From contig JALUCS010000126.1 in assembly GCA_027050205.1 (NCBI GenBank), positions 8,506-72,505 of the forward strand: a stretch of DNA of 64,000 nucleotides, given 5' to 3'. Position numbers and translations under genes: made by a program. The notes under the pieces are model-generated. The model was given only the letters and a program-made list of their open reading frames with translations, ran no database searches and was not told the origin of the DNA. This DNA comes from a candidate division WOR-3 bacterium. Its GTDB lineage: Bacteria > Hydrothermota > Hydrothermia > LBFQ01. Positions 1,227 through 62,741 of this stretch are shown one piece after another (position 1 is the first letter of the stretch; each line of letters opens with the position of its first letter).

Positions 1227-2195
1227 CTACCGGTTCCTTTTAGTGCGGTCGTACCTCTCAACCCACCTCCGGAGCTCCTCCTTGGAGGAGGCGTAGTCAA
1301 ATGCTTCATACACGACGAAGAAGTTCTCCGGGTCTACCACCCTGGGGTAGAGGAGCTTGGCCGCCTTCAGCCGATCGTTCTCAAAGTCAAACTCCTCCAG
1401 TATGGCCAACACCTGCTTGGATGTGAAGTAGTTCTTGGAAGCGGCCTCCTTAACTATCGCCATCTTCTCGTCGGAGAAAGAGGCGTCCTCTAAGGCCTCT
1501 ATGAGCCTCTCAAAGGCCTCCGGATCCATCGGCTCCCTGTCTTCCTCCTTGTTGAGGTGCTTGACGTACAGGGTGTTCTCCATCCCGTCCTTGACCTCCA
1601 CCTTCCCCTCCCACTCGCCGCGGCCGCACCTCAACCTCACTATGTAGAAGCCGGCCTTCAGGTACTTTCCCGTAGGGGTCGTCGCCTTATGGACGCGATG
1701 GCCGTCCTCGTCCAAAACCTCGCAGGAGCATCCCCTCGGCTCCTTTATCCGCAGGTAGGTCCTCCCGTAGGGCCGACGCACCACCGTATAGTCCCCGTAC
1801 TCCTCCCTCTCCTCCGTCTTCTCCCCATCCTTCTGCTCCATGTACTTGATGTAGAGAACGTTGTCCATCCCCCTCTTTATCTCCAGAACCCCGCTCCAGG
1901 AGTAGTCGTCGTAGCTGACGTTTATGCGGTACTTACCCGGCTTCATAGCCCTGGTGAGGGGTAGGTGGCTGGAGAGGACGAGGCGGTGGCTGCCGGCGCG
2001 GTATATGCGGACGGAGGCCCCTTCGGGGGAGGGGATAACGAGGCGGGTCATCCCCGTCCTCGCCCTGTAGAGGACGTAGGTATCGGTCTCGTACACTTCC
2101 TCGTACGCGTCCTCGTCGGGTAGGTCCACCCTCACCCTGGCCCTCCCTCCATCTACGTCTATTTGCAAACCTTGTGCCATTAACACCAACAGCAT
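1227..2195 (-). CDS. Exported protein with repeated beta-rich (PEGA-like) segments and a C-terminal DUF4476-like domain
   Basis: Internal repeat (..PGKYRINV..WSGVLEIKRGMDNVLYIK / ..AGFYIVRL..WEGKVEVKDGMENTLYVK). C-terminus MDPEAFERL..SFSDEK..YFTSKQV..FDFENDRLKAAKLLYPRVVDPENF resembles DUF4476. Confidence 0.65.
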   Translation of the reverse strand: MLLVLMAQGLQIDVDGGRARVRVDLPDEDAYEEVYETDTYVLYRARTGMTRLVIPSPEGASVRIYRAGSHRLVLSSHLPLTRAMKPGKYRINVSYDDYSWSGVLEIKRGMDNVLYIKYMEQKDGEKTEEREEYGDYTVVRRPYGRTYLRIKEPRGCSCEVLDEDGHRVHKATTPTGKYLKAGFYIVRLRCGRGEWEGKVEVKDGMENTLYVKHLNKEEDREPMDPEAFERLIEALEDASFSDEKMAIVKEAASKNYFTSKQVLAILEEFDFENDRLKAAKLLYPRVVDPENFFVVYEAFDYASSKEELRRWVERYDRTKRNR

Positions 2196-2337
2196 AACGA
2201 GTCTATTCTAAGGACGTGTCGGTGTAAGGGGGCGGAACCGACGAATACACCCTCCAAACCGCTGATTGTTCCTATAAGATAGAACAATTGCGTACGGCCG
2301 CCCTACGCCGCCCCTATTGCTCCGCTTAAGGAGAGCA

Positions 2338-4692
2338 TCACCTCACTACGACGAACTTGCCCGTTGCCGTCCCCCTCTCCGTCATCACCACTACGAAGTA
2401 CAGCCCTTCGGGTAGGTTGGAGATGTTCAGGCTCAACTCCGTCTCCCCTACGCTTATGTTCCTGGTCACCTTCTCCTCCCTTACGAGGTGGCCGGAGGCC
2501 GAGTATATGCGGATGGCCACGTAGTCGGCCGGGTAGGGACTCTCAACGACTAAGGTTATACGCCTGTGCCTGGACTTTGAGTAGGGGTTGGGATAGACCT
2601 TCGCCACCCTCATCCGTGGGCCTGTAGGCTCCACCTCAAACGGCTCGGCCGTAGCGAGGGCGTAGGCGTCGGGCATTCCGTACCCCGTCAGGTAGTTGGG
2701 CGTCGGATAGCCGGGGAGCTGGGAGGCTGTCTCAAGGAGCTTCCGCCGGAGCTTGGCGACGTCCCACGATGGATGGACCTCAAGGGCGAGGGCGAGGGCG
2801 CCCACCGTCAGGGGCGTGGAGTAGGAGGTCCCGGATACGCTCACGAGGGGGAAGGAGTCGTCCACCGCCACCACCGTGAAGGGGGCAGCCACCTCCGGCT
2901 TCACCCGGCCATCCGCGGAGGGGCCGAAGGCAGACCGGTTGGCCGGGAGCCACCTCCCGGAGACGGAGTCCCATATTACGCCGCTAACCGCCACCATATC
3001 GTAGGCGTCGGCGGGGGCCGTAAGCGTTGTGTCCCCTACGAGGGGGTCGGGCAGGGGCCTGTTTCCGACGTTCCCCATGGCGGCGACCACCAAAAGGCCG
3101 TACTTGAGGGCCTGGGAGACCGCCCGTGAGGAGACGGCCGTCCGGCCGTCCATCATATCCTTCGTGTATCCGAGGTCCGCCCCGTAGCCCAGGCTGATGT
3201 TGGCTATCTGCACACCCCGACGCACCGCCCACTCCAACGCTGCTACGAGGAAGTCCTCCTCTATGCGGTTCTCCCACACCACCCCCGTATCCGTACGGCC
3301 CACCTTCTCCGTCTTGGCGAGGTAGTAGGTCGCCCCCGGCGCCACCCCGATCAGCCTCCCCTCAACGTACCCGGCCAGGACGGAGAGGACGCGGGTACCG
3401 TGGTACCGGCCTATCCCGTACTCCGGGGCCTCCGCAACCGTGTCCCCCCTGGCCCGGAAGACCAACCTATCCCCGAAGAAGGTGGGTTTGTCGCACGAGG
3501 TCCACCCGTAGGTGCCAAGGAGGTTGCCGAGGGTGTCGTACACCTCTATACGGTCGGGGGAGGGTACCGCCACCTCCGTACCGTTGAAGGCCACCTCCGT
3601 GAGCATAGGGGCGGAGGCTACGGGTCTCCCACCGACGAAGGCCGTATCGTTCCTGACGTAGGCCACCTTACCGCCGGCGTATACGGGACGGAAGCCGGGA
3701 AACAGGGGGGTGGTACCGCTGCGGGTCATCATATAGACCGTATCCCCGTCGGAGAAGAGTAGGGTATCCCCCTTTAGGTGCATCCCCCCGAAACCCTCTA
3801 CCCTCTTACCCCTCCAGCACTCTATGGAGGATATTGCTCTATCGTAATAGCACAATTTTACGCTGTCCCCAGTGAAGGCCCCCAACGTGAGGGTGTCGGG
3901 TAGGGTGTCTAAGACGGCCATCTGGTAGCCGGTGAAGGTCCTTATGTCCTTTACAGTATCCTCCACCGTATCCACGGTGGCGAGGTGTAGGGTTCCGAAG
4001 CCGGAGGTCCATGCTACGAATATGCTGTCCCCAAGGAGGGCCAGCGAGGGGTTGTACTCGTACCCCATCTGGACGTTCCTAAGGCTCCACGAGCTGTCCT
4101 CGTTCAGGACGTACAGATAGAGGTTCCACGCCCGCGTGTTCGTTCCCTGTAGGGCCTTCTCGTCGGCACCGGAGTAGATGCAGAGGAAGGAGGAGGACAG
4201 GGGGAGGCAGTCGTAGGAGTGGACGTAGAAGGGTATGGGAACGGGGGGAGGGATCTCCCTGTCCTCCAACATCAGGCGGTCCCCACTGTTGAAGTCCATC
4301 TGACCGCCCACCTTAACGCCGAAGAGGGCGGGGTTGTTCAGGTCAAAGCCCGTGTCAAATATCCCGACCTTTACCCCCTTGCCGGTTATACCCAGCGAGT
4401 GGAGGGTGTCGGCCCTTACGGCCTCTACCTGCCGTTTGGACTCCCCGTAGGAGTAAGAGGAGATACCAATATTGCTACTGTTAAGCGGAACAATATTCCC
4501 GGAGCGTTTCACCCTGTACGTAAGGACGGGTACCCCCTCCGGGTTGAGGCGGAAGCCCCTCGGACTCTTCCCTTCCGCGAACCAGTAGAAGGAGAAACGT
4601 TCGGTTAGGGTGGATTTGGTCCTCATATAGAGGGAGTAGGCCTCCGCGTAAGGTACGTCGCTCGCCCTAAGGGACACCCAAAGAGGTACCAT
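2338..4692 (-). CDS. S8 (subtilisin-like) serine peptidase with a large insertion and a T9SS-like C-terminal domain
   Basis: Catalytic motifs VGIFDTG, YHGTRVLSVLAG, AAMGN and SGTSYSTP. C-terminus VYPNP...IRIYSASGHLV...NLPEGLYFV...KFVVVR. Start moved from 4818 to ATG 4692, which has TATAAT 7 nt upstream and avoids overlap with the divergent gene. Confidence 0.9.
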   Translation of the reverse strand: MVPLWVSLRASDVPYAEAYSLYMRTKSTLTERFSFYWFAEGKSPRGFRLNPEGVPVLTYRVKRSGNIVPLNSSNIGISSYSYGESKRQVEAVRADTLHSLGITGKGVKVGIFDTGFDLNNPALFGVKVGGQMDFNSGDRLMLEDREIPPPVPIPFYVHSYDCLPLSSSFLCIYSGADEKALQGTNTRAWNLYLYVLNEDSSWSLRNVQMGYEYNPSLALLGDSIFVAWTSGFGTLHLATVDTVEDTVKDIRTFTGYQMAVLDTLPDTLTLGAFTGDSVKLCYYDRAISSIECWRGKRVEGFGGMHLKGDTLLFSDGDTVYMMTRSGTTPLFPGFRPVYAGGKVAYVRNDTAFVGGRPVASAPMLTEVAFNGTEVAVPSPDRIEVYDTLGNLLGTYGWTSCDKPTFFGDRLVFRARGDTVAEAPEYGIGRYHGTRVLSVLAGYVEGRLIGVAPGATYYLAKTEKVGRTDTGVVWENRIEEDFLVAALEWAVRRGVQIANISLGYGADLGYTKDMMDGRTAVSSRAVSQALKYGLLVVAAMGNVGNRPLPDPLVGDTTLTAPADAYDMVAVSGVIWDSVSGRWLPANRSAFGPSADGRVKPEVAAPFTVVAVDDSFPLVSVSGTSYSTPLTVGALALALEVHPSWDVAKLRRKLLETASQLPGYPTPNYLTGYGMPDAYALATAEPFEVEPTGPRMRVAKVYPNPYSKSRHRRITLVVESPYPADYVAIRIYSASGHLVREEKVTRNISVGETELSLNISNLPEGLYFVVVMTERGTATGKFVVVR

Positions 4693-4765: not shown

Positions 4766-5863
4766 ATGTGGCTACTTCTCCTTACCGCCACCTCTTCCGA
4801 CAGCCTCTTGGTGCGCACAATGAAGCCGGAGATAGAGAAGGTTTTCGTTCCGCCTCCGGACTACACCCTGAACCCCGGCGACCGGGTCCTCATAACCGCG
4901 TACTCAAAGGAGGTCTCCATAGTCCAGTACGAGACCTTCGTAGATAACAACGGCCTCCTACCCCTTGAGATATCCCCCCTCTCCCGCCCTACGGCCGTAA
5001 AGGTCAAGGGGCTGACCATAGACTCCGCCCAGAAGGTCCTCCTAAAGGCCTACAGGAGGTTCATCCCCTCCGTCGGGTACGTGTCCCTCCAGCTCATAGC
5101 CCCCTCCAAGTTCTACGTCATACTCCGGGGGAACTTTGACCCCTCCCTCAACGGCTTCCTTCAGGTCAACGGCCTTACGAGGCTCTCCGACCTCGTTTGG
5201 AAGAAGGGGAAGGCCCTCCCTTACTCGGCCTTCAGCCGGGTGGTTGTCAACGGCGATACCTTCAACCTCTGGAGGTACCTCAAGGAGGGGGACATAAGCC
5301 AGAACCCCCTGCTCAAGGCCTACGATACGGTATTTCTGGATAGGACGGACTCCGTCGTCTATGCCGTCGGGGACTTCTCCAAGGGGAACTACTGGACGAT
5401 AGAGTGGGAGCCGGGGGATAGGGTCCACGACCTCGTCCTTAAGCTCCAGCTCGCCCGCCGTCTCTACACCCTGCGGAGGGTCCTCATAAACGGCCGGGAG
5501 GCCAACTTAAACACCCCCCTGCACGTCGGTGATACGGTTAGTTTTGACTTCGCCATTCCCTACGTCCTCGTCCTCGGAGAGGTCGTCAAACCGGGTGGGG
5601 TGGAGTACGCCCCCCACAAGACCGTCCAGGACTACATAATAGAGTCCTACGGTTTCGGCGAGAGGGCCAACCGCTGGAACATACGGGTGAAACATCCGGG
5701 GAGTACGAAGTTGGAGAGGGTCTCCCTGGACTACAGGCCCGGTCCGGGGGACGTAATAATCGTCGGCACTACCCTCCTGACCTTCAGGGACCTCGTCTTC
5801 CTCGGCCCCTCCATCGTATCAACGGCCGTCCTCGTCTATACTACCTTCTTCTCAAAGCGTTGA
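4766..5863 (+). CDS. Polysaccharide export protein with SLBB domains (Wza/KpsD-like)
   Basis: DYTLNPGDRV (Poly_export), VLVLGEVVKPGGVEY and PGDVIIV (SLBB), C-terminal amphipathic helix. Confidence 0.8.
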   Translation: MWLLLLTATSSDSLLVRTMKPEIEKVFVPPPDYTLNPGDRVLITAYSKEVSIVQYETFVDNNGLLPLEISPLSRPTAVKVKGLTIDSAQKVLLKAYRRFIPSVGYVSLQLIAPSKFYVILRGNFDPSLNGFLQVNGLTRLSDLVWKKGKALPYSAFSRVVVNGDTFNLWRYLKEGDISQNPLLKAYDTVFLDRTDSVVYAVGDFSKGNYWTIEWEPGDRVHDLVLKLQLARRLYTLRRVLINGREANLNTPLHVGDTVSFDFAIPYVLVLGEVVKPGGVEYAPHKTVQDYIIESYGFGERANRWNIRVKHPGSTKLERVSLDYRPGPGDVIIVGTTLLTFRDLVFLGPSIVSTAVLVYTTFFSKR

Positions 5864-21166: not shown

Positions 21167-22855
21167 TTATTTTACGCCGGGGAAACCCCGGCCGTAGAGG
21201 GAACGGTAGGCCCTGTAGCTCCGTATCACCCTCCGGACGTACTTCCGGGTCTCGCTGTAGGGTATTACGTCTATGAAGTGGGGGAAGTTCAGGAGCTCGT
21301 ACCCGTACCTGCAGAGCCACCTGTCCAAGGCCCCCCTACCGGCGTTATAGGCGGCGGCCACAAGGTGAGGGGAACGGTAGATCTGGAAGGCCTCCCTAAG
21401 GAGGAAGGCACCCATCCTTAGGTTGGTCAGGGGGGCGTAGGGGTCCCTCACCCTCTCCTTCATCTCCCTCCTGAACCGCCTGACGTTGAAGGGCATTATC
21501 TGGGCGAGACCCATAGCCCCCGCCCTTGACCTCGCCTTCCTCTTGAACCGGGACTCCTCCCTGACTATAGCCCGGAGGAAGAGGGGGTCTATGCCGAACT
21601 CCTTGGCCGCCGAGTCTATCTCCCTCCCGTAGAGGGTGTAAGGGAAGGCCATCCTCCCCCACCAGAGGGGTACCCCCCTACCCTTGTCTGCCACCCTATA
21701 CACCCCCGCCAGGACGTAGGAGGCCTTCAGGAAGTTCCCCTCGTCCATCAGCTCCCTTGCCCTCCTGTAGCCGGAGGGGACGTCCTTAACGTACCAGGGG
21801 TAGGCGAGGCTCCAGCCCCAGAGTTTCTCCATCACCTTGCCTATCTCGTAGTTCCTAAGGTTGCCAGCGGTGTCCCAGACGTCCCCCTCCTTCCATGGAA
21901 CGTCCTCCGAAAGTTCAAGGTAGTAGTAGCTTATGGGGTTGTAGGTGCGGAGGTCCCGGACGTAGTTGGTATCCCGGCTTAGTAGGTAGAGCCAGTAGGT
22001 CGCCTGCGTCCATACGAAGGACCCCCTCTCCGCCCTCTTGCGGGCCTCGTAGAAGTAGTTGTACGCGTCTTCAAGGTAATGGACGCCGTAGGCGGAGAGG
22101 CCGAGCCATACGAAGCTCTCCGGGTCCAAGCCGTCATAGGCGGTGGCCGAAATGCGGGCGTAGAGGTCGGAGGCCTCGTAGCGGAGGAAGGGTTTAGCCA
22201 CCTCCGAAGCCATCACTCGGTAGGCCCTCCTGTAATCCCCCATCCTGATGAGCTCCAAGAGGGCCAGGGATATGGAGTCGTAGTCTTCGGCGTTCAGAAA
22301 CCGCACAAGGTGCTTTATGAGCGCCCTCTTCCGGTACTCCGGGGGCATCTTGAGAACCTCGGAGAAGGATACCCCCCTCCTCTTCCACTTCGCCACCAGG
22401 TACAGGCCGTACTCCTCCGGGTCCGTCGTATCCGCCGCCTTGAGGACGGAGTCCCACATCCCGTGGGCGAGCATAACCCGAAGCTTCAATTTCTTGGAAA
22501 CTGGGAGTTTGAGGAGTTTCTTCGCCTCCTTTGTCCTTGGGTAGAGGCGGCCGAGGTCGGCGAGGTAGGAGACCTTGCGGGTCTTCCTGTAGAGGTACTT
22601 GAGGACGGGGTAGGTCTTCGGACAGGGAGGAACCTTGACGGCCGGCGATCCTCCCCCGGCGAGTCGGTTGCAGGCCAGACGGCAGGGCCTCTTATCTTTC
22701 AGTGAGCATATCTCCCGGAGGATGCGGGAGGCTTCCCCCGGAGGGGTGGTCTTGAGGGTTGCCTTTGCGGCGAGGATGTAAGGTCTTATCTCCGGGTAGA
22801 GCTGCTGTAGGGAGTCAAGGGCGCGACTGCTAAGGGCGGCAGATAGTAGGAGCAT
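21167..22855 (-). CDS. Soluble lytic transglycosylase (SLT domain)
   Basis: AIVREESRF, GAMGLAQIMP, AAYNAG, IPYSETRKYV. Confidence 0.9.
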   Translation of the reverse strand: MLLLSAALSSRALDSLQQLYPEIRPYILAAKATLKTTPPGEASRILREICSLKDKRPCRLACNRLAGGGSPAVKVPPCPKTYPVLKYLYRKTRKVSYLADLGRLYPRTKEAKKLLKLPVSKKLKLRVMLAHGMWDSVLKAADTTDPEEYGLYLVAKWKRRGVSFSEVLKMPPEYRKRALIKHLVRFLNAEDYDSISLALLELIRMGDYRRAYRVMASEVAKPFLRYEASDLYARISATAYDGLDPESFVWLGLSAYGVHYLEDAYNYFYEARKRAERGSFVWTQATYWLYLLSRDTNYVRDLRTYNPISYYYLELSEDVPWKEGDVWDTAGNLRNYEIGKVMEKLWGWSLAYPWYVKDVPSGYRRARELMDEGNFLKASYVLAGVYRVADKGRGVPLWWGRMAFPYTLYGREIDSAAKEFGIDPLFLRAIVREESRFKRKARSRAGAMGLAQIMPFNVRRFRREMKERVRDPYAPLTNLRMGAFLLREAFQIYRSPHLVAAAYNAGRGALDRWLCRYGYELLNFPHFIDVIPYSETRKYVRRVIRSYRAYRSLYGRGFPGVK

Positions 22856-22887: not shown

Positions 22888-23184
22888 TTACCCTATCCCG
22901 TACTTGCTCAGGTAGGCCTTCACGAGGAGGTTGAAGAACTTCGTGTGTTTCCCGTCCATCAGCTTAAGATGCACCAGCTCGTGTACTATCACCTCGTGGC
23001 GGAAGCGGGCGGGTTGCTTGAGTAGGTCGCTGTTTAAGGTGAGCCTTCCCCTCGTTGAGACGCTCGCCCACTTCCGTTTCATCGGCCTCACGTGTATCTC
23101 CTTCAACCTGTCCTCAACCCCTATCCTCCTCGCCCACGTCCAGACTTCGGCGATGAGAATGTCCCGCATTACGTCCTCACTCAT
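22888..23184 (-). CDS. Short YgjP/M48-like zinc metallopeptidase associated with type I R-M
   Basis: MKRKWASVS...VIVHELVHL...HTKFF; overlaps the end of hsdR. Confidence 0.8.
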   Translation of the reverse strand: MSEDVMRDILIAEVWTWARRIGVEDRLKEIHVRPMKRKWASVSTRGRLTLNSDLLKQPARFRHEVIVHELVHLKLMDGKHTKFFNLLVKAYLSKYGIG

Positions 23185-36399: not shown

Positions 36400-37962
36400 T
36401 TAGAACACTACGATGGCCTCCTCCAGACTCCCCGCCTTTACGACGTAGGCTCCCCTCTGAAGTCTCAAGGTGAGGGTTCCACCCTTCGCCACCCTACGTA
36501 CTACGAGGCGGCCATCGGCGGAGTAGATGGAGACGGGTAACTCCCTCCCGACGTAGAGCCTTACGAGGCCGCGGCCCACCTGCTCCACCTTAAGGCTGAC
36601 GGGAGGCGTAGGGGCCTCCTCCGCTCCGAGGTCTCCCCCTTCGCCCAAGACGTTGCACCCGGATACGGGGGTGGAGGAGTCAAAGACGTAGAGTCGGCTA
36701 CTGGAGTAGTCCCCGCTGGAGACGACCTCCATACAGGAGTCGTTGTCCACGTCGGCTATGGAGAGGCCCTCAAAGTAGTCGGAGTCGTAGGTCCAGGCCA
36801 CCGTCCCATCCGGACCCCTAAGGACGGCGAGGTGGGGACTGGAGCCGTACCTCGCCCCGGAGACTATGACCTCTATCACCCCGTCCCCGTCTATGTCGCC
36901 TATCTTGCGGCCGAGGGCCTGGTAGCCGCTCCTCGTTCCACTGTAAGACCACTGGACGCTCCCGTCCGTCCCACGGAGGACGTAGAGGTACCCCGTTGAG
37001 GAGGGCATGCATCCGAAGAGGACGTCCTTGACACCGTCGCCCGTTACGTCGGCTATGGTGGGGGAGTTGAGGGATCCCCAGTAGGAGCCGCACCCGGAGG
37101 TCCAGGACCATATTACGGTGCCGTCATGACGGAGGGCTACGACGTTCCCGTTCCCGGCCACCACCACCACGTCGTAGAATCCGTCCCCGTCCACGTCGGC
37201 TACGGCGGGGTTCCCTTGGGTACCTACGGAGTACGTCCATACGGTTGAGCCATCGTTGGCGTTAAGGACGTAGAGGGTGTTGCTCGCTACGGTTATGACC
37301 TCGTCGTGGCTGTCTCCGTCCAGATCCGCAACGGCGACGTTGGCGTAGCTGGAGGAGCCGGAGTGGGACCAGAGGGTGGCGCCGTCGCTACCCCGAAGGG
37401 CGTAGATGCTGCTGCCTACGACGAAGACCTCCCCCACACCGTCCCCGTTGACGTCCTGTATGGTAGCAGGGGAGTAGCTGACGCCAAGGGACCTGCTCCA
37501 GAGGACGGCCCCGTCCGTACCCCGGAGGGCGTAAACCGTCCCGCCGTTGGAGACCACCACCTCAAGCCCCGGAGAGGAGGGGTCCAGCTCGCCCAGGGCG
37601 GGGGTCCCCCAGCCGGTGGAGGAGCCGAGGTACCTCGTCCAAAGGAGGGTACAGTCCGTCCCCCGGAAGACCATCACCCGGCTGGAGCTGTAGGTGAGGA
37701 CGACGATCTCGTTGATGCCATCGTCGTTGATGTCGGCGACGGCGGGGTCACCCTCGCTGCCGGTGTTGAGGGTGGCGGAGCATTTCAGGTGGGGACCCGT
37801 CACCGCCCCCGTTAGCCGTTGGATACCCGCGAGGGAAGAGGAACCGTGGTGCATCATCCAAGTGCTGACGGCCGAAGATACCGGAGGTACCTGGGCCTCA
37901 AGGGAGACCGCACTCCCAGCAATGAAACTTCCAAGTATCGCATACAAAAACCTTCTCATCAA
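36400..37962 (-). CDS. Secreted FG-GAP/PQQ-like beta-propeller protein with a T9SS-like C-terminal domain
   Basis: Normal signal peptide; repeats ADxxxDG..EV and LRGxDGxxxW; C-terminal IYSADGRLV...GAYVVK. Confidence 0.8.
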   Translation of the reverse strand: MMRRFLYAILGSFIAGSAVSLEAQVPPVSSAVSTWMMHHGSSSLAGIQRLTGAVTGPHLKCSATLNTGSEGDPAVADINDDGINEIVVLTYSSSRVMVFRGTDCTLLWTRYLGSSTGWGTPALGELDPSSPGLEVVVSNGGTVYALRGTDGAVLWSRSLGVSYSPATIQDVNGDGVGEVFVVGSSIYALRGSDGATLWSHSGSSSYANVAVADLDGDSHDEVITVASNTLYVLNANDGSTVWTYSVGTQGNPAVADVDGDGFYDVVVVAGNGNVVALRHDGTVIWSWTSGCGSYWGSLNSPTIADVTGDGVKDVLFGCMPSSTGYLYVLRGTDGSVQWSYSGTRSGYQALGRKIGDIDGDGVIEVIVSGARYGSSPHLAVLRGPDGTVAWTYDSDYFEGLSIADVDNDSCMEVVSSGDYSSSRLYVFDSSTPVSGCNVLGEGGDLGAEEAPTPPVSLKVEQVGRGLVRLYVGRELPVSIYSADGRLVVRRVAKGGTLTLRLQRGAYVVKAGSLEEAIVVF

Positions 37963-39423: not shown

Positions 39424-39496
39424 TGGAGCGGAGGGGAGTCGAACCCCCGACCCCCTGGTTGCAAACCAGGTGCTCTCCCACCTGAGCTACCGCCCC
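39424..39496 (-). tRNA. tRNA-Ala(UGC); CCA not encoded
   Basis: GGGGCGGTAGCTCAGGTGGGAGAGCACCTGGTTTGCAACCAGGGGGTCGGGGGTTCGACTCCCCTCCGCTCCA. G3:U70 pair, TTCGA T-loop, followed by CTT. Confidence 0.97.
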
Positions 39497-41494: not shown

Positions 41495-42094
41495 ATGTTC
41501 CCCAAGAGGGTTATCTCGCTCTCTATCCTGATAGTGATAGGCGTCTCGCCGCTGTGGGGACGAGGTAGGAGCCTGTGGATGGAGGTCGGAGGGGGGCCTT
41601 GGCTCCCTATGTTCGGCACCTTCAAGAGCGACCACGACCCCGGCCTCCAGGGGCGCATCCGCATCGGGTACGACGGCCGCTTCACCGTACCCCAAGCCCT
41701 CCAAACTTGGTTTCCTCCCCTCGCCCTGTTCAAGGACGCCTATCCCTTCGCCGAGGTCTATCACTCCTTCAACAGGTTGAAGACGGGGACCTCCGGAAAC
41801 CTCCTGTTCTTCGGGGCCGGAGGTAGGGTCCTAAAGAACGCTGGGAGCTTCGGGTACGGCGGACAGATGTCCCTCGGTTTCCTCTACCTTTACTCCTCCA
41901 AGAGCTACCAACCCGCCGGTATCCTCGGTATTTACGGGAGGTGGGACCTGCGAAGTTTCTACCTCTACGCCGAATACTCCCTGGAGACGTCCGTTGACCT
42001 GAGGTCCTCCTACTCCGTAGATACCTCCCTCTCCTTCCTCCAGAGGACGGCCGGGTGGCACGAGGCGGGGGTGGGGATAGGGATGAGGTGGTAG
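41495..42094 (+). CDS. Putative outer-membrane beta-barrel protein
   Basis: Normal signal peptide, amphipathic strands, terminal W; TATAAT 7 nt upstream of ATG 41495. Confidence 0.55.
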   Translation: MFPKRVISLSILIVIGVSPLWGRGRSLWMEVGGGPWLPMFGTFKSDHDPGLQGRIRIGYDGRFTVPQALQTWFPPLALFKDAYPFAEVYHSFNRLKTGTSGNLLFFGAGGRVLKNAGSFGYGGQMSLGFLYLYSSKSYQPAGILGIYGRWDLRSFYLYAEYSLETSVDLRSSYSVDTSLSFLQRTAGWHEAGVGIGMRW

Positions 42095-44376: not shown

Positions 44377-44886
44377 ATGAGGTGGCTTCCTATCCTCCTT
44401 CTCCTATCCTCCTGCTCGTTTGCTGTAAGGGGGGATATAGACGGCTCAACCCTCACCTCCCCCGAAGTCATCGGTACCGTCGTCCTCGGTTTTGAGGCCC
44501 CCGGAGGGCATGGGGACGTATCCATCGGCGGGAACCTCTTCAAGGAGCCGCCAAGGGGGTTGAGGGGGACGACGGATGGCCTCCTTTACCTCACCTACCA
44601 GCTCATGCCCTACTCCAAAAGGCTCAAGAGGAGCAACCTTCCCCTATTCTCCCCCGGTTTCTCCGTCGGCTACGCCCACAGGTTGGACACAGGCCACAAC
44701 CTCCTCCTCTCCGGCAACCTTGAGCTTAACTTCCTAAGGTACTACGGCCGGGAGGCCTACGACTTCGGCCTACTTTTCCTAACCGTCAGGTATCAAACCT
44801 TCTTCCCGACGTCCGGTAGGGACATCCGCACGGGTGTGAGCTTTGGGTTCGGCTTCAGGGGGGCGTGGTGGTCCGCTCCGTGGTGA
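44377..44886 (+). CDS. Putative lipoprotein or small beta-barrel
   Basis: MRWLPILLLLSSC lipobox; beta-strand pattern. Confidence 0.55.
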   Translation: MRWLPILLLLSSCSFAVRGDIDGSTLTSPEVIGTVVLGFEAPGGHGDVSIGGNLFKEPPRGLRGTTDGLLYLTYQLMPYSKRLKRSNLPLFSPGFSVGYAHRLDTGHNLLLSGNLELNFLRYYGREAYDFGLLFLTVRYQTFFPTSGRDIRTGVSFGFGFRGAWWSAPW

Positions 44887-48440: not shown

Positions 48441-51230
48441 ATGCTCGTCCTGCTCCTAAGCCAGTGGTCCTACGGGTACAACAAGGTGGATTACAAGAAC
48501 CTCCGCTGGGGCTACCTTGACGGGAAGCACTTTCAGGTGTATTACTATCAGGGTGGGGAGAGGCTGGCGGAGTTCGCCCTTGGGGTACTTGAGGAGGCCT
48601 TCAAGGAGTACCAACCCTACTTTCCGGGAGCCATAACCGAGGGGGAGAAGATTCCCGTCCTCATATACGTCTCCCCCAAGGACTTTGAGATGACCAACGT
48701 CTCCCCTTACCTCGTACCGGAGGGGGTCGGTGGCTTCACGGAGAGCTTCAAGAGGAGGATAGTGGTCCCCTTCGCCGGATCCTATCCGGAGTTCCGGCAC
48801 GTCCTACGGCACGAGCTGGTGCATGCCTTCCAGTACTCCTACTCAAGGGGGCTGTCATCTATGTTCTCATCCCCTCCCCCGCTGTGGTTTGTGGAGGGGA
48901 TGGCCGAGTTCCTGTCGGAGGGGTGGAGCGTCCGCACCGAGGCCTATATGCGGGATATGGTCATAAACCTCTCCCTCCCTCCTCTACGGGAGATGGACTA
49001 CTACGCCGGGTACATAGTCTATCGCTACGGTGAGGCCTTCTTCAACTACGTAAAGGACGTCTACGGGGAGGAGGCCGTTCGGGACTTCATAAGGTACGGC
49101 TTGGGCGGTAAGGTGCAGGAGGCCCTCCGCCGTATCACCCACAAGGACCTCGTGGATATTGACGAGGAGTTTTCTATGTACATAAAGGAGAGGGTCCTGA
49201 AGGCGATGGGTACCTTCAACTTCCCCAACGATATAAAGAAGCTGACGAGCCGTCGTAGGGACAACTCCTTCCTCAACCTCGGTGCCGCCATATCACCGGA
49301 CGGCTCCAAGGTGGCCTTCGTGTCGGATAGGGGCGGGAGGATTGGGATATACGTCGCCGACCTCGCTACGAGGGAGATAAAGAAGCTCCTTTCGGCCGGG
49401 AGGTCCCCGGACTTTGAGAACCTACACGTCGTAAAGCCCTCGTTGAGCATATCTAAGGACGGGAAGCTGGTCACTATATCGCAGGGTACGTACTCGGACC
49501 TCCTCCACATCTACGACATCCGTACCTTCAAGAGGCTCAAGAAGGTCCCCCTGAAATTCTTGGACGGCGCCCATGGCGCCCGCATATCCCCGGACGGCGG
49601 TAAGGTGGTCTTCGTAGGGTACTCCAACGGCGTCCCCGACCTCTACCTCTACGACATAAGGCGAGGGGTGTTCTCCAAACTGACCAACGACCCGTGGAGC
49701 GAGGACGACCCCTATTGGTACGACGATAGCACCGTCATATACGTGAGCGACAGGAACGATAAGGGGGAAATAGGTGCCTACGCCATTTTCAAGGTAAACG
49801 TCAATACCGGCGACATAGAGTACGTCTGGGGCAGGCGGAGGATACTCCGCTCCCCTATAAGGTGGAAGGACGGGATCGCCTTTCTGACGGACTACAGGGG
49901 GGCGGTGAATATGTTCCTCCTGCGGGGGGACAGCATTTATATGCTAACCGATTACTTCACGGAGCTATCCCATCCGGACGTGGCCGAGAACGGTAGGGTG
50001 GTCTTCTCTATGATGTGGGAGGGGGGATGGGACGTCTTCCTCGCCCCTTACTCCTTGGATGAGAAGGGGGAGGTTTCTCTGGAGACGGAAGGAGGTTATA
50101 CCCTGCCCGACTCCAACCTCATCGCTGGGGCAGTTAAGAGGCCTCTGGGCTTCACCCTCGGCATAGACATGGCCTACGGGAGCCTCGGATACTCCTCCTT
50201 TTACGGGACGGTCGGGGCCTTCTACATGCTCCTCTCGGACATCCCCGGAGACAACTGGATATTCCTCCAGCTTCTCGGCCAATCCCAGGACATAAGCAAC
50301 TCCGAGTTCGTGATAACGTGGTACAACTTCAAGGGGCGCCTGGACAAGGTCCTCGGCCTCTCCCAGCTCTGGAACTTCAAGTACACTCCTCCCCATTTCA
50401 TATACGAGAAGAGGCTTTCCGCCGACGTCGGTCTCCAGTACCCGTTTACCCGGTACTTCAGGGTAGAAGGGTACTTCTCCGCCCACTACAACACCTGGAT
50501 AATGTTTCACGAGGACTCCCTACTCTACTACTACCCCAACTGCGTTAGCTACAACCTGTGCATATCGCCCAGATTCACCTATCCTAAGGGGTACGATATT
50601 ACGGCCTCTCTGGTCTACGACGACGTCCTCTTAACCTACTATGGCTCAACGGAGGGCGTAAGGTGGAGGTTGATAGGGGCGACGAGTCTCCCCGGCTCAC
50701 AGGTGGACTTCAGGACGGCCTTCTTTGAGGGGATGTTCTTCAAGAGGGTAACCCACCGGAGCATCTGGGCGAACCGCCTCGTCCTCGCCCGTAGCGTTGG
50801 CAAACATAGGGATGCCTTCACCGCCGGGGGGCCTTACGGTGTGAGGGCTTACGACCTCTTCTACTTCTTCTACGACGAGAACAACAGACCGGTGCGGTTC
50901 CTCATAGGCAACAACCTCGTCCTGTTCAACTCCGAGTTGCGGTTCCCCTTCCTTGACCGCCTCAAGTTCGGTTTCCTGCCCTTTGAGGTTAGGGGCATAA
51001 GGGCGCTCCTCTTCTTGGACATAGGAAACGCCTGGTTTGACGAGGATATACCCCTGAACAAGTTCCAACCTATAAGGGACGGCGTCCTCTGGGACCTCTT
51101 CGCAGACTTCGGGGCCGGTTTCCGTTTCAACCTCGGATACTTCCCCTTGAGGGTGGATTACGCCTTCCCAACGGACCTCAAGAGGGTCTATAGCGGGCGG
51201 TGGATCCTGTCCTTCGGCTGGGACTTTTAG
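48441..51230 (+). CDS. Omp85/BamA-TamA-like barrel fused to a peptidase-MA-like domain and a TolB/PD40 propeller
   Basis: HELVH...WFVEGMAE, ISPDG.KV.F repeats, VRAY and NSELRFP barrel motifs, terminal GWDF. Confidence 0.82.
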   Translation: MLVLLLSQWSYGYNKVDYKNLRWGYLDGKHFQVYYYQGGERLAEFALGVLEEAFKEYQPYFPGAITEGEKIPVLIYVSPKDFEMTNVSPYLVPEGVGGFTESFKRRIVVPFAGSYPEFRHVLRHELVHAFQYSYSRGLSSMFSSPPPLWFVEGMAEFLSEGWSVRTEAYMRDMVINLSLPPLREMDYYAGYIVYRYGEAFFNYVKDVYGEEAVRDFIRYGLGGKVQEALRRITHKDLVDIDEEFSMYIKERVLKAMGTFNFPNDIKKLTSRRRDNSFLNLGAAISPDGSKVAFVSDRGGRIGIYVADLATREIKKLLSAGRSPDFENLHVVKPSLSISKDGKLVTISQGTYSDLLHIYDIRTFKRLKKVPLKFLDGAHGARISPDGGKVVFVGYSNGVPDLYLYDIRRGVFSKLTNDPWSEDDPYWYDDSTVIYVSDRNDKGEIGAYAIFKVNVNTGDIEYVWGRRRILRSPIRWKDGIAFLTDYRGAVNMFLLRGDSIYMLTDYFTELSHPDVAENGRVVFSMMWEGGWDVFLAPYSLDEKGEVSLETEGGYTLPDSNLIAGAVKRPLGFTLGIDMAYGSLGYSSFYGTVGAFYMLLSDIPGDNWIFLQLLGQSQDISNSEFVITWYNFKGRLDKVLGLSQLWNFKYTPPHFIYEKRLSADVGLQYPFTRYFRVEGYFSAHYNTWIMFHEDSLLYYYPNCVSYNLCISPRFTYPKGYDITASLVYDDVLLTYYGSTEGVRWRLIGATSLPGSQVDFRTAFFEGMFFKRVTHRSIWANRLVLARSVGKHRDAFTAGGPYGVRAYDLFYFFYDENNRPVRFLIGNNLVLFNSELRFPFLDRLKFGFLPFEVRGIRALLFLDIGNAWFDEDIPLNKFQPIRDGVLWDLFADFGAGFRFNLGYFPLRVDYAFPTDLKRVYSGRWILSFGWDF

Positions 51231-51236: not shown

Positions 51237-52691
51237 CTACCTGACCACTACCTTAAACACCCTATCCTTGACCTTAACGAAATACACACCGGTGGGCAGA
51301 GATACCCTGCCCTCGCCTCTGAAGACGAGTCTGCCGCTGACGGAATACACCTCACCCTTAACCTTCATCTCAAGCCCTCCCTTTAGTACGGTAAATACCC
51401 CCTTACTCTCCATCCTCCTCTCCTTAACCTCTACCATACCTTTGGTGGTAACACTGAAATACACCATACGATCTGGCTCCCTCCTGTCCCCACCCCATAT
51501 GCCAAAGAGACGGTCGCTGTCGTACTCAAACCCCATATACTCCCCCTCAAGATTGTCCCCGTACATCCTGAAATCCGCAGAGGACACACGCCCAACTACC
51601 TCCCACGTGTTCCCTCTATCAACACTCCTGCCCCACATTACCCTCCAGACACTGTCCCTTCGGGACGTGTCCACCTTCTCAAGATAGCTTACGTACCACA
51701 CGCTCGCACTTTGGGTCAGGGTGGGCTGTATCTGATCCCTGTTCAGCGTGCTGTCTATCCACCTACCCGTCCAACTCCCATAACCTCCGTTGTAGTTGTA
51801 GGCCACCCGCACATTGCACGTTGTCATCCCGTTGAACCTCGTGTATCCTATTGCTATCGTGTCTCCTTTGACTATCATGGTGTGAATCGTTTTCGTTGGT
51901 CTCTTCCAAATTAGCCTGCTCCTTGTGGCACATTTTGTTGTACTATCCGCCAGAAACCATATCGCTGCTGTGTCTATTATGTCCCAAGTTGCGCCGTAGT
52001 CGTCGCTCCTCGCCAGACCGATGGTTATCCTTGAAGGAGATGAAAGGAAGTACTTTGTGCTTGCGTACGAGAGATAAAATCTACCACCGGTGTATGCAAG
52101 ATAGGATACGTTTGCCTCCCTCGTAGAATCAACGATTACGGGCCCTTCCCATGTTATTCCACCATCTGATGAATGATAAACGACTACAACCGGAGTGTCA
52201 GCTTTGTACTCATGAGCCACGCTTACGACGATTTTTCCTCCGGGTGCAACGGCCATTCTGGGATAGTCTTTGGGGATGGTATCCCTTACAGTGTCTCCAT
52301 AGATCATGCCAGTAAGTGTATCGCAATCACCTAATACCCCTCCTATCACCTCACAGAAATGGACAAAGTATCTGCTGCCATGTGGTAATCGTGGGCATAC
52401 CTCAAGATAAACGACAAAAAATCTGCTGGGATTATCAGGATCGGGACGAACAAAAGGATCCGTTCTATTACAGTTTTTAGGAAACGTATCAGCATCACTC
52501 CACGTACTTCCCCCATCGCTACTGTATTTATAATAGACCTTTATATTACCACGGGTATCTGCCTTCATCCAGGCAACCATTACATTGTTGCCGTTAACTG
52601 CCACATGAGGTTCTACGTTCCTATATCCTGACTCTCCTATTTGAACTTCGCTCAGGAAGGGAGGATCAAGGGAAATCAGGAGTGCCAGCAT
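51237..52691 (-). CDS. Secreted sialidase-like (BNR/Asp-box) protein with a T9SS-like C-terminal domain
   Basis: Asp boxes SSDGGSTW, SSDGGITW, SDDYGATW, SVDRGNTW; C-terminal VYSVSGRLV...LPTGVYFVK..KVVVR. Confidence 0.78.
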   Translation of the reverse strand: MLALLISLDPPFLSEVQIGESGYRNVEPHVAVNGNNVMVAWMKADTRGNIKVYYKYSSDGGSTWSDADTFPKNCNRTDPFVRPDPDNPSRFFVVYLEVCPRLPHGSRYFVHFCEVIGGVLGDCDTLTGMIYGDTVRDTIPKDYPRMAVAPGGKIVVSVAHEYKADTPVVVVYHSSDGGITWEGPVIVDSTREANVSYLAYTGGRFYLSYASTKYFLSSPSRITIGLARSDDYGATWDIIDTAAIWFLADSTTKCATRSRLIWKRPTKTIHTMIVKGDTIAIGYTRFNGMTTCNVRVAYNYNGGYGSWTGRWIDSTLNRDQIQPTLTQSASVWYVSYLEKVDTSRRDSVWRVMWGRSVDRGNTWEVVGRVSSADFRMYGDNLEGEYMGFEYDSDRLFGIWGGDRREPDRMVYFSVTTKGMVEVKERRMESKGVFTVLKGGLEMKVKGEVYSVSGRLVFRGEGRVSLPTGVYFVKVKDRVFKVVVR

Positions 52692-52703: not shown

Positions 52704-53333
52704 TCATTTCAGATAAACAGGCCCCACTTCAAACGAGGCGCAGGAGTCTATGGAACCTAATGGAGGCGTAACGAAAAGAGTAAAACCGTAGATCGGCTGG
52801 AAAGATTGATTGGGATAAACGAGATCGTAGAGATACATCGCAACCCTTTCCCACTTACCGGGTTCTTTTATGTGGGCCTTTCTCGTTCCCCATCCTTCCC
52901 ATTCTACCTCCTCGCCTTTGTTGTTAAGGGAACGGAGTTCCGGTACGAAACGTACAGTACAGTACTTCTCCTTGCTTCTGACATAGACGATGAGGCTATC
53001 AACCTTGGGTATCGGATAGTAGTAGAGGTCGTAGTACTTGCCATTATAGGAGTTCTCGTATCCGAACTTATAACCCATCTCCTCGTACCTTCTCTTCATA
53101 TCCACATCGCCCTTTTCTATCCATCTCTGGCCAGCTATGAGTGTAGCACCGGAGTAGGACCTGTGCTTGGGATAGGCGAAGTAGAACCTCTGGTAGGCCT
53201 TTATAACGATCTTGGCATCCTCCTCCTTGGGTACGCTGTCATCGGGGAGTATCAAAGTATCCCTCTTCAGAGGTAGGGCAGCCCACCATCCACCTTCTAA
53301 CTCTACCGGTTGCGACAGAAGGCATAGAAGCAT
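52704..53333 (-). CDS. Hypothetical exported protein (possible paralogue of 53377-54000)
   Basis: Short hydrophobic N-terminus; TAAAAT 8 nt upstream. Confidence 0.6.
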   Translation of the reverse strand: MLLCLLSQPVELEGGWWAALPLKRDTLILPDDSVPKEEDAKIVIKAYQRFYFAYPKHRSYSGATLIAGQRWIEKGDVDMKRRYEEMGYKFGYENSYNGKYYDLYYYPIPKVDSLIVYVRSKEKYCTVRFVPELRSLNNKGEEVEWEGWGTRKAHIKEPGKWERVAMYLYDLVYPNQSFQPIYGFTLFVTPPLGSIDSCASFEVGPVYLK

Positions 53334-53376
53334 AAGGTTATATTTTAAAGGTGAAGCAAAGATTTTGAAAGTGTAT

Positions 53377-54000
53377 TTACTTTACAAGGTATATTGGGCT
53401 TAGCTCTATCTCGTACTCGTAGTCGCCAAAGGTGTCGGCTAGGGGGATGATGTAAAAGCTAAGCGGATAGGGTCTATCGGTACCGTACGAACAAGGCAAG
53501 GAAAAGTGCATCCCGACAGCCGGAGGATTATAAACGTTAAAATCCTTACCTAAACTATCAAGGTCTATACGAATCTCTATCCACGATACGTCAAGGGTTT
53601 GCTTTCGTACTATAGGGCTTCTACAGTATCCCCGATATACAATCTCTCCGCCCATTTCGTACTTTCCCTTCCCCCTGATATAGAAGACGAGATACCTACC
53701 CCAGTCAAGGAGGTCAAGAGGATAGCTTTTAAGATAGGAAGCCATACCGGGCATAAGGAGTTCCGTCCTCCAGCTCTTATCCCTGTACTCCCACACTCCC
53801 TTTAGATGCAGGGCCTTGTAGTCATCTACGACCCTGTACTCCCCGTTGGGTACGGGAATACTGTCGCTCAAGGGTAGTGTGTCAAAGTTGGCTATCTCCC
53901 AGCCCCCGTACTCGTACTTCACCGCACCGACAGCCTTGAGTATGCTGTCCATCTGTCTGCTCTCGTAAAGGTCGGCAAAGAGGTAGGCAAAAAGCAACAC
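53377..54000 (-). CDS. Hypothetical exported protein
   Basis: Similar length and motifs to its neighbour (GGW...D.L.L.D..P, YLVFYIRGK vs LIVYVRSK, C-terminal P.YL.K). Confidence 0.6.
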   Translation of the reverse strand: MLLFAYLFADLYESRQMDSILKAVGAVKYEYGGWEIANFDTLPLSDSIPVPNGEYRVVDDYKALHLKGVWEYRDKSWRTELLMPGMASYLKSYPLDLLDWGRYLVFYIRGKGKYEMGGEIVYRGYCRSPIVRKQTLDVSWIEIRIDLDSLGKDFNVYNPPAVGMHFSLPCSYGTDRPYPLSFYIIPLADTFGDYEYEIELSPIYLVK

Positions 54001-59906: not shown

Positions 59907-60401
59907 AGAAAAACTATTCTAAGGCTGTTCAAAAATCTCCGTCCCTGTGGGAATCGTACTATTTTTACACATTTACCAATTATATATGGAAATTTACAGA
60001 AATATAATTCATAATTTCACCAAAATATTGGATACAATTAGCGCTACACTGAAATTATTAAACACTTTTGGTGCGGTGAAGGTTTGAAAGGGGGAATGAA
60101 ATAAAACACAAATGAAGTTTAAAATGTACCAATAAAGCGTAAAAATTCCAAGAAATATGCGACTTAATACGTTTAAAGTCCAAGATACCTTATTTTTCTT
60201 ATGAAGCTACTCTTAAATAACAATGCGAAAATCCTGCAATCAAAATAGCTATAAAAATACAGCTGAATTTGTGAAATATAATACATAACTCCTTAAAAAA
60301 TTGAAAAATATGCACAAGAAACAAAAACGCCAGGAACACGCCGCCGATTGACCTTCGGCAACCCTACACACCGGAGCAGTTCCGGGATAGAATAACCCTC
60401 T

Positions 60402-62741
60402 ATGCTCTTAATTTTCCTAAGTCAGGCCCAGGGGGGAACGGCCGATACTACTACCACCCCGAAGGCGGTCTATATAGGCCAGATACAGTTCATAGGCGTC
60501 AAGTGGACGAACCATCAGGTCCTGCGCAACGCCGTAAAGCTGACGGAGGGGCAGAGGATAACGGGGATGGACTTCAAGGACGTCCTCAACAGGCTGTGGG
60601 ACCTCGGCATATTTGACGACATCAAAGCCCTCGGAATGCTCCACGGCGACACCCTTGACCTCCTCTTTGACCTCAAGGAGGCCCCGCGGATAAGGAAGAT
60701 AAAGATAGAGGGGGCGAAGAAGGTCAAGGGGAAGGTCTTCACCGACACCCTCCGCAAACTCTTCAAGAACAAGGCGGCTACCGAGAGGAACCTCTTCAAG
60801 ATGAAGAAGCTGATAGAGAGAATATACCACCAGAAGGGGTACCTACAGGTGCAGGTTGAGTACGAGGTGAGCAAACCCAACAAGAAGGGCGAGGTTGAGG
60901 TGAAGTTCAAGGTGAAGGAGGGGGAGAAGTTTAAGGTGGGGTTCATAGACTTCAAGGGGAACAAGACTTACTCCGACCGTACCCTAAGCCGGGTCATACA
61001 CACCAAACCCTACCGCTGGTGGATGAGGCTCACGAACTGGTACGTCTTTGACGAGGACAAGTGGAAGGAGGACCTGCGCCGCATAGAGGACTTCTACCAC
61101 AACCACGGCTTCCCCGACGCACGGGTAGACTCCTTCAGGACCTACAGCATGGAGAAGGGCTTTATGGGGATAGTGGTCTTCTTGAGCGAGGGGAAGGAGT
61201 ACAAATTCGGGAAGTTCCAGTTTGAGGGGAACAGGGTCTTCGGCGACACCCTCCTCGCCCAGCGGGTTGAGAAGGTAAAAAAAAAGTTCAACCCCTTTGA
61301 CTGGATAAAGTACCGCCTCTGGTACCAGGCCCCCCACGCCCTCAACCCGGACCTATACTCCGCCGAGAAGTACAGCCTGATGAAGCAGGAGGTCCTCGGC
61401 CTCTACGCCGATTCGGGATACATATACACCCGCATAGACGATCACCCCGAGAGGCGGGACGGACGCATAGACTTCCGCTGGGACATAACCGAGAACTGGA
61501 GGGTTAAGGTGCGCCTCGTCAACATCTACGGGAACACCCGCACCTACGACCGCGTCATAAGGAGGGAGTTCTGGATGTTTCCGGGGGAGTACTTCTCCCG
61601 CGCCAAACTCATAAGGAGCGTCAGGAACCTCTACTTCTTGAACTACTTTGAGGGGGTACAGCCGGACTTCTCCCCCGTCCCCGACGACTCCCTGTGGATA
61701 GACTTAAACGTGCGGGTCACGGAGAGGCCGACCGGACAGATAAGCGCCGGCGTGAGCTACAGCCAGTTGGAGGGCCTCTTCGGGAACCTCTCCTTCCAGC
61801 AGCCCAACTTCCTCGGAAGGGGTCAGTCCATAGCCATCGTGCTGGAGTACGGGAGCTGGAGGAAGAACTTCCGCCTGTCCTTCACCGAGCCGTGGTTCGG
61901 GGGCGAGCCTACGAGCGTGGGGGCCAGCCTCTACTACCTCACGGGGTACTACTTTGACTACTGGCAGAACAACGTCGGCGTCCAGTTCAACCTTGGCAGG
62001 CGGATCTTCGGGACCTACTGGGGAATAAACGGCTTCTACAAGTTTGAGAGGATAAGGCTCTACGACATTAACCCCAAGTACGCCGGCCAGCCCTTCTACG
62101 ACTACTGGCAGAACAAGAAGGGGGGCCTTTATATGAGTACCATCTCCGGGACGGTCTATTACGACTCAAGGGACAGGGTATTCAACGCTATGAACGGCTA
62201 CAGGGTGTCCTACGAGCTGGATCTGGTGGGTGGCCCTATGGGTGGGGACGTGAGCTTCACCAGACACTTCCCGGAGGTTCAGGCCTTCAAGCCCCTCCCC
62301 TTCTTCGGTGGGGACAAGCTCATAAACGCCTTCAGGGTGAGGGGTGGCCTTTTAACGGGTTTGACGACGGACAAGGACATACCCTTCTTTGAGTACTTCC
62401 TCCTCGGGGACGTGGGTTTCTACGGCCTTAGGGGGTACAACCTCCGGAGCGTCGGCACCCATGTAGGGGGCAGCGTTATAGGGGGTAAGGTGTTTGCCGT
62501 ACTCACGTACGAGTTCCGCATAAGGCCGAGCGAGAACTTCTATCTGCTCGCCTTCGCCGAGGCGGGGAACGCCTGGTGGGAGCCGAGGACGGTCAATCTG
62601 AGAGATCTGAAGCGTAGCGCCGGCGTGGGATTCCGCGCCCAAATCCCCATGCTCGGAATAATGGGGATAGACCTCGGATACGGCTTTGACGACCCCTCCC
62701 ACCGCTGGGTCCCCCACTTCCAGATAGGGGCTACCTTCTAA
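60402..62741 (+). CDS. bamA: Outer membrane protein assembly factor BamA
   Basis: POTRA repeats (GN.RT.DRVIRRE, E.PTGQISAG), NFLGRGQ, FTEPW, LRGY, terminal F. Confidence 0.95.
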   Translation: MLLIFLSQAQGGTADTTTTPKAVYIGQIQFIGVKWTNHQVLRNAVKLTEGQRITGMDFKDVLNRLWDLGIFDDIKALGMLHGDTLDLLFDLKEAPRIRKIKIEGAKKVKGKVFTDTLRKLFKNKAATERNLFKMKKLIERIYHQKGYLQVQVEYEVSKPNKKGEVEVKFKVKEGEKFKVGFIDFKGNKTYSDRTLSRVIHTKPYRWWMRLTNWYVFDEDKWKEDLRRIEDFYHNHGFPDARVDSFRTYSMEKGFMGIVVFLSEGKEYKFGKFQFEGNRVFGDTLLAQRVEKVKKKFNPFDWIKYRLWYQAPHALNPDLYSAEKYSLMKQEVLGLYADSGYIYTRIDDHPERRDGRIDFRWDITENWRVKVRLVNIYGNTRTYDRVIRREFWMFPGEYFSRAKLIRSVRNLYFLNYFEGVQPDFSPVPDDSLWIDLNVRVTERPTGQISAGVSYSQLEGLFGNLSFQQPNFLGRGQSIAIVLEYGSWRKNFRLSFTEPWFGGEPTSVGASLYYLTGYYFDYWQNNVGVQFNLGRRIFGTYWGINGFYKFERIRLYDINPKYAGQPFYDYWQNKKGGLYMSTISGTVYYDSRDRVFNAMNGYRVSYELDLVGGPMGGDVSFTRHFPEVQAFKPLPFFGGDKLINAFRVRGGLLTGLTTDKDIPFFEYFLLGDVGFYGLRGYNLRSVGTHVGGSVIGGKVFAVLTYEFRIRPSENFYLLAFAEAGNAWWEPRTVNLRDLKRSAGVGFRAQIPMLGIMGIDLGYGFDDPSHRWVPHFQIGATF

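Follow-up and report, generated by a model that had tools for sequence, protein, structure and literature searches.

In a candidate division WOR-3 bacterium (GTDB lineage Bacteria; Hydrothermota; Hydrothermia; LBFQ01), most of the proteins that must be exported, the essential BamA among them, carry a signal that consists of methionine and about six hydrophobic residues. The trait was noticed in a stretch of 64,000 nucleotides (GenBank assembly GCA_027050205.1, contig JALUCS010000126.1, positions 8,506 to 72,505 of the forward strand; hereafter the window), in which the bamA gene (60402-62741, + strand) opens with MLLIFLS (60402..60422) and a predicted cut before Gln8, shortly downstream of an in-frame TAA at 60393-60395. 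Sec signal peptides are normally about 18-30 residues long, and the export machinery of this organism seems to manage with much less signal than the textbook rules would permit. The trait is real, large, conserved and apparently undescribed, and from it we infer a mechanism: at a probability of roughly 0.6, the short segment would be a stripped Sec/signal peptidase I (SPase I) signal, a micro-signal read by SecA/SecYEG and cut by LepB. The segment marks exported proteins, takes the place of a whole conventional signal in paralogues, ends in the cleavage motif that the genome uses for its other signals, and occurs together with the corresponding machinery.

The extent of the trait was assessed in the source genome (2.05 Mb, 135 contigs, 93.5% complete), for which our own gene caller returned 1,883 genes, start codons being predictions throughout. 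Proteins were assigned to a short-start class if residues 2-7 were uncharged and included at least four of L/I/V/F/M/W and if no long helix was present. This class holds 262 of the 1,804 classified proteins (14.5%), next to 107 with conventional or N-anchored starts, 85 lipoproteins, 148 membrane or intermediate proteins and 1,202 others. Because the same pattern is found at 12,397 of 413,965 internal protein positions (3.0%), some tens of the 262 may be due to chance, and the class includes some cytoplasmic false positives; it is also strict enough to miss a lytic transglycosylase start in the window (MLLLSAALS), which a looser filter catches. Allowing for missed and false-positive calls, we estimate the true number at about 200-230. 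The apolar stretch before the first charged or strongly polar residue has a median length of 8 and a mode of 7, and residue 2 is L/I/V/M/F in 88% of the 262 proteins.

The definition itself excludes charge from residues 2-7, and a set that was picked independently, by C-terminus alone, is informative here: among 42 proteins resembling substrates of the type IX secretion system (T9SS), 31 have short starts, eight are conventional and three fall elsewhere. Pfam matches to T9SS domains, 16 of 19 of which could be mapped to gene calls, gave 13 short and three conventional starts. Short starts occur in one of 86 P-loop proteins, in none of 11 CxxxCxxC proteins and in none of 70 genes of a Bacteroidota control sample. 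When 83 of the 262 proteins were scanned with Pfam, 52 had matches, of which 44 were judged to belong to envelope or secreted families, seven were neutral as to location and one was cytoplasmic. The envelope or secreted families comprise SurA, LolA, SprA, TolC, FadL, two amidases, S13, PCuAC, DsbA-like proteins, OmpA, YceI, subtilases and YajC (a single-sequence structure prediction of LolA, with a pLDDT confidence score of 43, was left unused). In YajC (L259:2603-2923) and several polytopic membrane proteins the short signal stands ahead of the first helix; similar short leaders occur on YajC in other phyla and are a possible evolutionary source.

The ends of the short segments carry a common motif. 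Gln occupies position 8 in 12.6% of the short-start proteins, compared with 1.8% in mature regions, and the first Gln lies at positions 7-10 in 60 of the 262. It is preceded by S/A/G in 47 of these 60 (23% in mature regions), and Leu stands at -3 in 39. Conventional signals of this genome that end in [A/G/S] before Gln have Leu at -3 in 13 of 21 cases, and it follows from these counts that short and conventional signals both end in L-x-small. Lys and Arg account for 6% of residues 8-14 in short-start proteins and for 12% later on. Furthermore, 24 short-start proteins could be paired by BLAST with a long-signal paralogue, and in 10 of these pairs the predicted first mature residue of the paralogue coincides with a residue of the short protein that immediately follows S/A/G, at position 8 (eight cases), 9 or 11. 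Examples are MLVAIIS↓IPAFAR against ...LWG↓IPTYAR and MVLFLIS↓QSVSQ against ...LYA↓QPYAQ (arrow, predicted cleavage). In these cases of exact register the short segment replaces the whole conventional signal. Enrichment on exported families, register with paralogue signals and a shared cleavage motif together support the original prediction of a minimal, non-canonical export signal.

Other signal types are set apart from it. Basic signals of full length are found on the 85 predicted lipoproteins, as the classifier demands of that class by definition, and a lipobox-like Cys is present in only three of the 262 short-start proteins. These proteins have no Arg in residues 2-7 and hence no twin-arginine motif; separate RR-type signals and TatC are present in this genome, and TatC was not found in two near-complete genomes of the class that have short signals. 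A likeness to the Q-rule of Bacteroidetes, where on average 71% of SPase I substrates have Gln after the site (PMC5837995), had also been suggested and holds to a degree. Short and long signals alike are enriched in Gln as the first residue behind the predicted SPase I site, but it affects only the minority of proteins given above, and the signals of Bacteroidota are of normal length, as the control sample illustrates. No type I glutaminyl cyclase (PF05096) was found in four of four class genomes, and none is readily recognisable among the two PF04389 matches in this genome, a 563-residue short-signal protein and a weak partial match.

The trait extends well beyond this genome. BamA was found in 148 of 151 genomes of the phylum, and 70 of its N-termini were read and labelled short or conventional by eye. 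None of the 33 from the organism's own class exceeds about 14 residues: families f1, f2, f4 and f7 have starts of 6-9 residues, and those of the other families measure 11-14 residues and in some cases contain one Lys. The 37 from the remaining WOR-3 families divide into 17 short and 20 conventional ones. Counts of short starts in samples of 58-100 kb, false positives included, are 10/74, 8/81, 11/60, 3/52, 6/87 and 1/72 within the class and range from 3/73 to 10/87 in ten other WOR-3 genomes, some of which have a conventional BamA. Among the best 150 BamA representatives, about 120 lie outside the WOR-3 part of the tree and have, by eye, conventional or longer N-termini; the four exceptions (P0096, P0106, P0119 and P0145) have uncharged starts of 9-17 residues that could not be confirmed against DNA. 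Going by these sequences, BamA signals outside WOR-3 are almost all of the conventional kind. A FastTree phylogeny of 72 BamA proteins with their signals trimmed contains at least three separate short clades, one of them with long-signal families nested inside. A single origin of the short BamA signals was rejected on this ground, in a tree whose deep nodes are weak and to which no formal clade test was applied.

Compared with the known export signals, the short segments come closest to the classical Sec/SPase I type. They are N-terminal, have a hydrophobic core, a small residue at -1 and few Lys or Arg after the site, and serve periplasmic, outer membrane and T9SS substrates; the machinery is encoded, and short and conventional signals are interchangeable among paralogues. 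They differ in their length of 6-9 rather than about 18-30 residues, in the missing basic n-region, in a core of 3-5 residues plus cleavage motif, unable to span the membrane, in place of an h-region of about 7-15, and in Leu instead of Ala dominating at -3, a preference that includes the genome's long signals. Because they lack both the n-region and the length, they are set apart from plain Sec/SPase I signals despite their Sec/SPase I-like working. An uncleaved signal anchor needs about 18-20 hydrophobic residues, more than these segments possess, and proteins with such anchors were classed separately. Class III signals of prepilins and archaellins are likewise very short leaders that are removed, as is predicted here, but they are charged and precede a long retained helix, whereas here a short hydrophobic piece is followed by polar mature sequence. 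The prl translocons of E. coli export proteins whose signals are defective by normal rules; the present trait, in contrast, is natural and phylum-wide, and conservation suggests that the stub is required. No published description of such signals was found, in a search that left most subscription literature outside, and the words "signal" and "secret" are absent from the main text of two papers on WOR-3 (PMC12285271; PMC12542636).

In the mechanism that we favour, the n-region and most of the h-region would have been lost, leaving a signal made up of Met, three to five hydrophobic residues and L-x-[S/A/G]. SecA would bind the preprotein via the hydrophobic stub together with determinants in the mature domain, which are known to contribute to targeting (PMC8082313), and would deliver it to SecYEG-SecDF without the signal recognition particle (SRP). 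On geometric grounds of our own, seven residues cannot form an N-in membrane-spanning helix, and the uncharged stub would for that reason cross the channel or slip out of it and end up in the outer leaflet. There the single, ordinary LepB may cut it, often exposing a Gln that could cyclise without an enzyme, since spontaneous cyclisation is possible (PMC5837995). Lipoproteins, with signals that have to span the membrane for Lgt and LspA, keep normal ones. A retained N-formyl group would remove the last charge; in E. coli, N-out proteins can keep the formyl group, there in an SRP-dependent manner (PMC5454389). A loss of formylation or deformylation was rejected, with matches to fmt in 34 of 34 genomes and to def in 31 of 34. 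A bolder version, offered tentatively and in our judgement somewhat more apt to fail than to hold, is that in WOR-3, and most extremely in one Hydrothermia order, the periplasmic and outer membrane proteome is exported by uncharged signals of 6-8 residues that never form an N-in loop. The entire signal would instead travel through SecYEG or be let out of it head-first, possibly still formylated at its N-terminus, and be cut off at the outer leaflet, in cells also devoid of SRP. If true, this would be a distinct mode of Sec initiation, possibly with an unknown targeting factor.

Several points weigh against a stripped Sec/SPase I signal. The export route and the cleavage by LepB are themselves inferred from sequence. 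The cleavage sites of conventional signals were placed by eye, without SignalP, and 14 of the 24 paralogue pairs are out of exact register, owing to indels or to alignments that begin only further in. No A/S/G is present at positions 6-10 in 26 of the 262 proteins, and in a few BamA homologues the residue that precedes the Gln is large. The 83 proteins scanned with Pfam were drawn from regions dense in short starts. SecA was not found in this 93.5% complete assembly; it is present in a genome of the same genus and in 30 of 30 others. Finally, neither SecY nor SecA nor LepB has a change that follows the distribution of the trait, and the translocon's acceptance of such short signals is thus without a counterpart in these proteins.

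The alternative that survives best, though we consider it unlikely, is a dedicated, lineage-specific receptor or route, in which a chaperone, an adaptor or YidC would read the stub and LepB would still trim it. A seven-residue uncharged segment fits poorly with signal insertion at the lateral gate (PMC8082313), the trait is restricted to the phylum, and searches of 38 class genomes yielded neither of the SRP GTPases Ffh and FtsY, so that membrane proteins, at the least, would need some substitute targeting. No such factor came to light in work that included no systematic search for one, and YidC, like SecDF present in five of five genomes, is ordinary-looking, as is SecDF. The repeated switching of paralogues and BamA orthologues between long and short signals is better explained by one tolerant pathway.

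Rather improbable, too, is that the stub is not removed by LepB at all, but stays as a small anchor or is trimmed by another peptidase, export being driven by signals in the mature domain (PMC8082313) and a permissive, Prl-like channel. Seven residues are too short for a bilayer-spanning helix, prl mutants do export proteins with defective signals (PMC4826270; PMC3101351), and the roughly 10% of short-start proteins without a small residue at positions 6-10 would be accommodated. Against this stand the L-x-[S/A/G]↓Q motif common to both signal classes and the alignment of short starts in exact register with cleaved paralogues, as well as the nature of the substrates: outer membrane barrels, the shuttles LolA and SurA and T9SS cargo must leave the inner membrane. 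In addition, the prlA4 allele of E. coli is SecY F286Y/I408N (PMC4826270), and at the equivalent positions SecY, which was found in 32 of 32 genomes, still has Phe and Ile, by which a prlA4-like change is ruled out. The uncleaved micro-anchor of the original prediction is less likely than cleavage.

An unusual SecA, SRP or signal peptidase had been expected to accompany the short signals, and the genomes bear this out only in part. LepB is present in 32 of 32 genomes, in single copy here, and aligns with E. coli LepB across the regions of the catalytic Ser and Lys (17 of 30 rows of the SecA/LepB comparison were covered for LepB). An insertion of about 100 residues in the preprotein-binding domain of SecA occurs in long- and short-signal WOR-3 genomes and in two genomes outside the sample, and this shared spread rules it out as a special adaptation (one Bacteroidota SecA was left out). 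Several machinery genes were recovered by family searches where a motif search had missed them. As separate observations, the C-terminal Cys-rich motif of SecA is absent in families f1-f4, f6, f7 and f11 (L280-L285, L307) and kept in f5, f8 and most others, and SecY (L159:1408-2745) has an Arg in transmembrane segment 10 at the position of E. coli S405 in nine of nine class genomes and none of 21 others. An Asp in transmembrane segment 5, at A197, is also found in nine of nine class genomes, with Asp or Glu in several other families; Arg and Asp might pair in a salt bridge close to the periplasmic side.

A second surprise, which can be separated from the first, is the lack of Ffh/FtsY throughout the class. 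Matches to PF00448 were not found in any of the 38 class genomes, near-complete ones included, nor in WOR-3 families f11, f23, f24 and f26, and were found in 95 of 151 genomes overall and in 14 of 14 control genomes; several families have only one match to the SRP54 family. The small SRP RNA was not found in three class genomes, with a model that also missed it in an Ffh-positive genome. Other SRP-less bacteria exist. In passages of PMC8321541, no mention of SRP loss in bacteria was found. The absences in the class, together with the occurrence there of the most extreme short signals, suggest that SRP loss gave rise to the short signals, yet this is very improbable: of the 17 genomes outside the class with a short-signal BamA, 14 have two SRP54-family matches, two have one and one has none, and five of the 20 genomes with a conventional BamA have none either. 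Across the phylum, SRP status as read from these genomes does not track BamA signal length, and SRP loss is largely refuted as a necessary cause.

Least credible of all is an artefact, in which the true starts would lie upstream, hidden by non-canonical codons, frameshifts or assembly errors, and would yield normal signals: the start codons are indeed our own predictions, but 123 of the 262 genes have an in-frame stop within eight codons upstream, the 160 with at least six open upstream codons have a mean upstream hydropathy of -0.52 (only 15 exceed 1.0), independent genomes that differ in GC content share this short start of BamA, and the short start itself is preceded by a -10 box in 170 genes and a Shine-Dalgarno site in 58. 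With starts that are predicted, missed upstream starts thus fail to explain the short N-termini, in agreement with the initial view that a longer N-terminus had not been overlooked. About half of the genes in this genome look leaderless, with about 52% of the 1,883 genes assigned a -10 box and 31% a Shine-Dalgarno site; the TAnAAT box lies mostly 6-9 nt before the start and is preceded by a CC(T/G) extension. Leaderless mRNA was rejected as a requirement, since the leaderless-type fraction of short-start genes (170/262) is similar to that of conventional (63/107) and lipoprotein genes (51/85) and 58 short-start genes are led by Shine-Dalgarno sites.

The rules of a basic n-region and a membrane-spanning core underlie models of SecA/SecY initiation and all secretome predictors. 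Essential BamA, SurA and LolA with signals of 6-9 residues throughout the phylum would show that most of the signal is naturally dispensable. The minimal signal and the share of mature-domain targeting become directly testable, with long and short paralogues in one genome as natural pairs, and a cultured Hydrothermia strain, sy37, exists (PMC12285271; class according to PMC12542636). The secretomes of WOR-3, many thermophile hydrolases included, are probably under-predicted.

Within the window, all nine short N-termini listed in the original prediction were confirmed in place, including the BamA start with its upstream TAA, and Gln is at position 8 in four of them, as claimed. The -10 boxes said to lie upstream of most were found as TAnAAT 5-11 nt upstream in seven of the nine; the starts at 48441 and of gene 51237-52691 are Shine-Dalgarno-led. 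For bamA the box is TAGAAT (60388..60393, +), 8 nt 5' of the ATG, and suggests a leaderless-type start. Pfam supports the names given to BamA (POTRA and Omp85), the Omp85-like, BNR, LptA/LptD_N, Poly_export and SLT proteins. The Omp85/PD40 protein (gene 48441-51230, +) begins with MLVLLLS↓Q (48441..48461) directly 3' of an in-frame TAG, and MLLCLLS↓Q (53313..53333; gene 52704-53333, -) heads a protein with no Pfam family and with several paralogues elsewhere in the genome. A protein assigned by Pfam to DUF4476 has MLLVLMA↓Q (2175..2195; gene 1227-2195, -), and a BNR-repeat protein with a T9SS-like C-terminus has MLALLIS↓L (52671..52691; gene 51237-52691, -). MFLILLS↓G (33541..33561) opens the LptA/LptD_N protein (32707-33561, -) and MLLFAYLFA↓D (53974..54000) a protein with no Pfam family (53377-54000, -); both genes start with GTG, which corrects the earlier annotation. 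The Wza-like Poly_export protein (4766-5863, +) starts with MWLLLLTA (4766..4789) and has no lipobox Cys, unlike classical Wza proteins, which are lipoproteins. The lytic transglycosylase (SLT; 21167-22855, -) has its short N-terminus, MLLLSAALS, at 22829..22855. A further, weaker candidate is a subtilase with a T9SS C-terminal domain (2338-4692, -; probable start 4692), which begins with MVPLWVSLRA (4663..4692).

The conventional signals reported for the same stretch are real and serve as controls: a 22-residue signal of an FG-GAP protein ending L-E-A↓Q (37894..37959, -; its start is at 37959 rather than the 37962 given before), a 22-residue signal ending L-W-G (41495..41560, +) and one at 63899..63961 (+), whose gene extends beyond the window end. 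To these can be added a lipoprotein signal, MRWLPILLLLSS↓C (44377..44412, +), with a basic n-region and a lipobox.

Some other features of the window were recorded. Two families of exported proteins of about 210 residues, without Pfam assignment, form tandem paralogues adjoining BNR-repeat T9SS cargo at several loci (window 52704-54000; L257:9849-11852; L272:7533-9161). A palindrome, ATTG(C/T)T(C/A)-N10-(G/T)A(A/G)CAAT, a pattern read from the window itself, is present in six copies on this contig only (at about 2265, 4471, 8005, 9320, 32097 and 44158); five of them are intergenic or at gene edges, near pspA, lemA and envelope genes, and the palindrome is possibly an operator. A low-GC defence island (22888-31601) encodes type I restriction HsdR and HsdS, DUF3800, an MNT-HepT pair, a PIN protein, a DarT-macrodomain fusion in one open reading frame (27113-28333) and a short YgjP-like reading frame. 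The MNT-HepT pair lies between the two copies of a 46-nt direct repeat (29634, 30315), which duplicates a promoter. A tRNA-Ala(TGC) gene lies at 39423-39496 (-), and long AT-rich intergenic stretches (59906-60380 and 63183-63880) flank the bamA-mscL pair in a contig of 56% GC.

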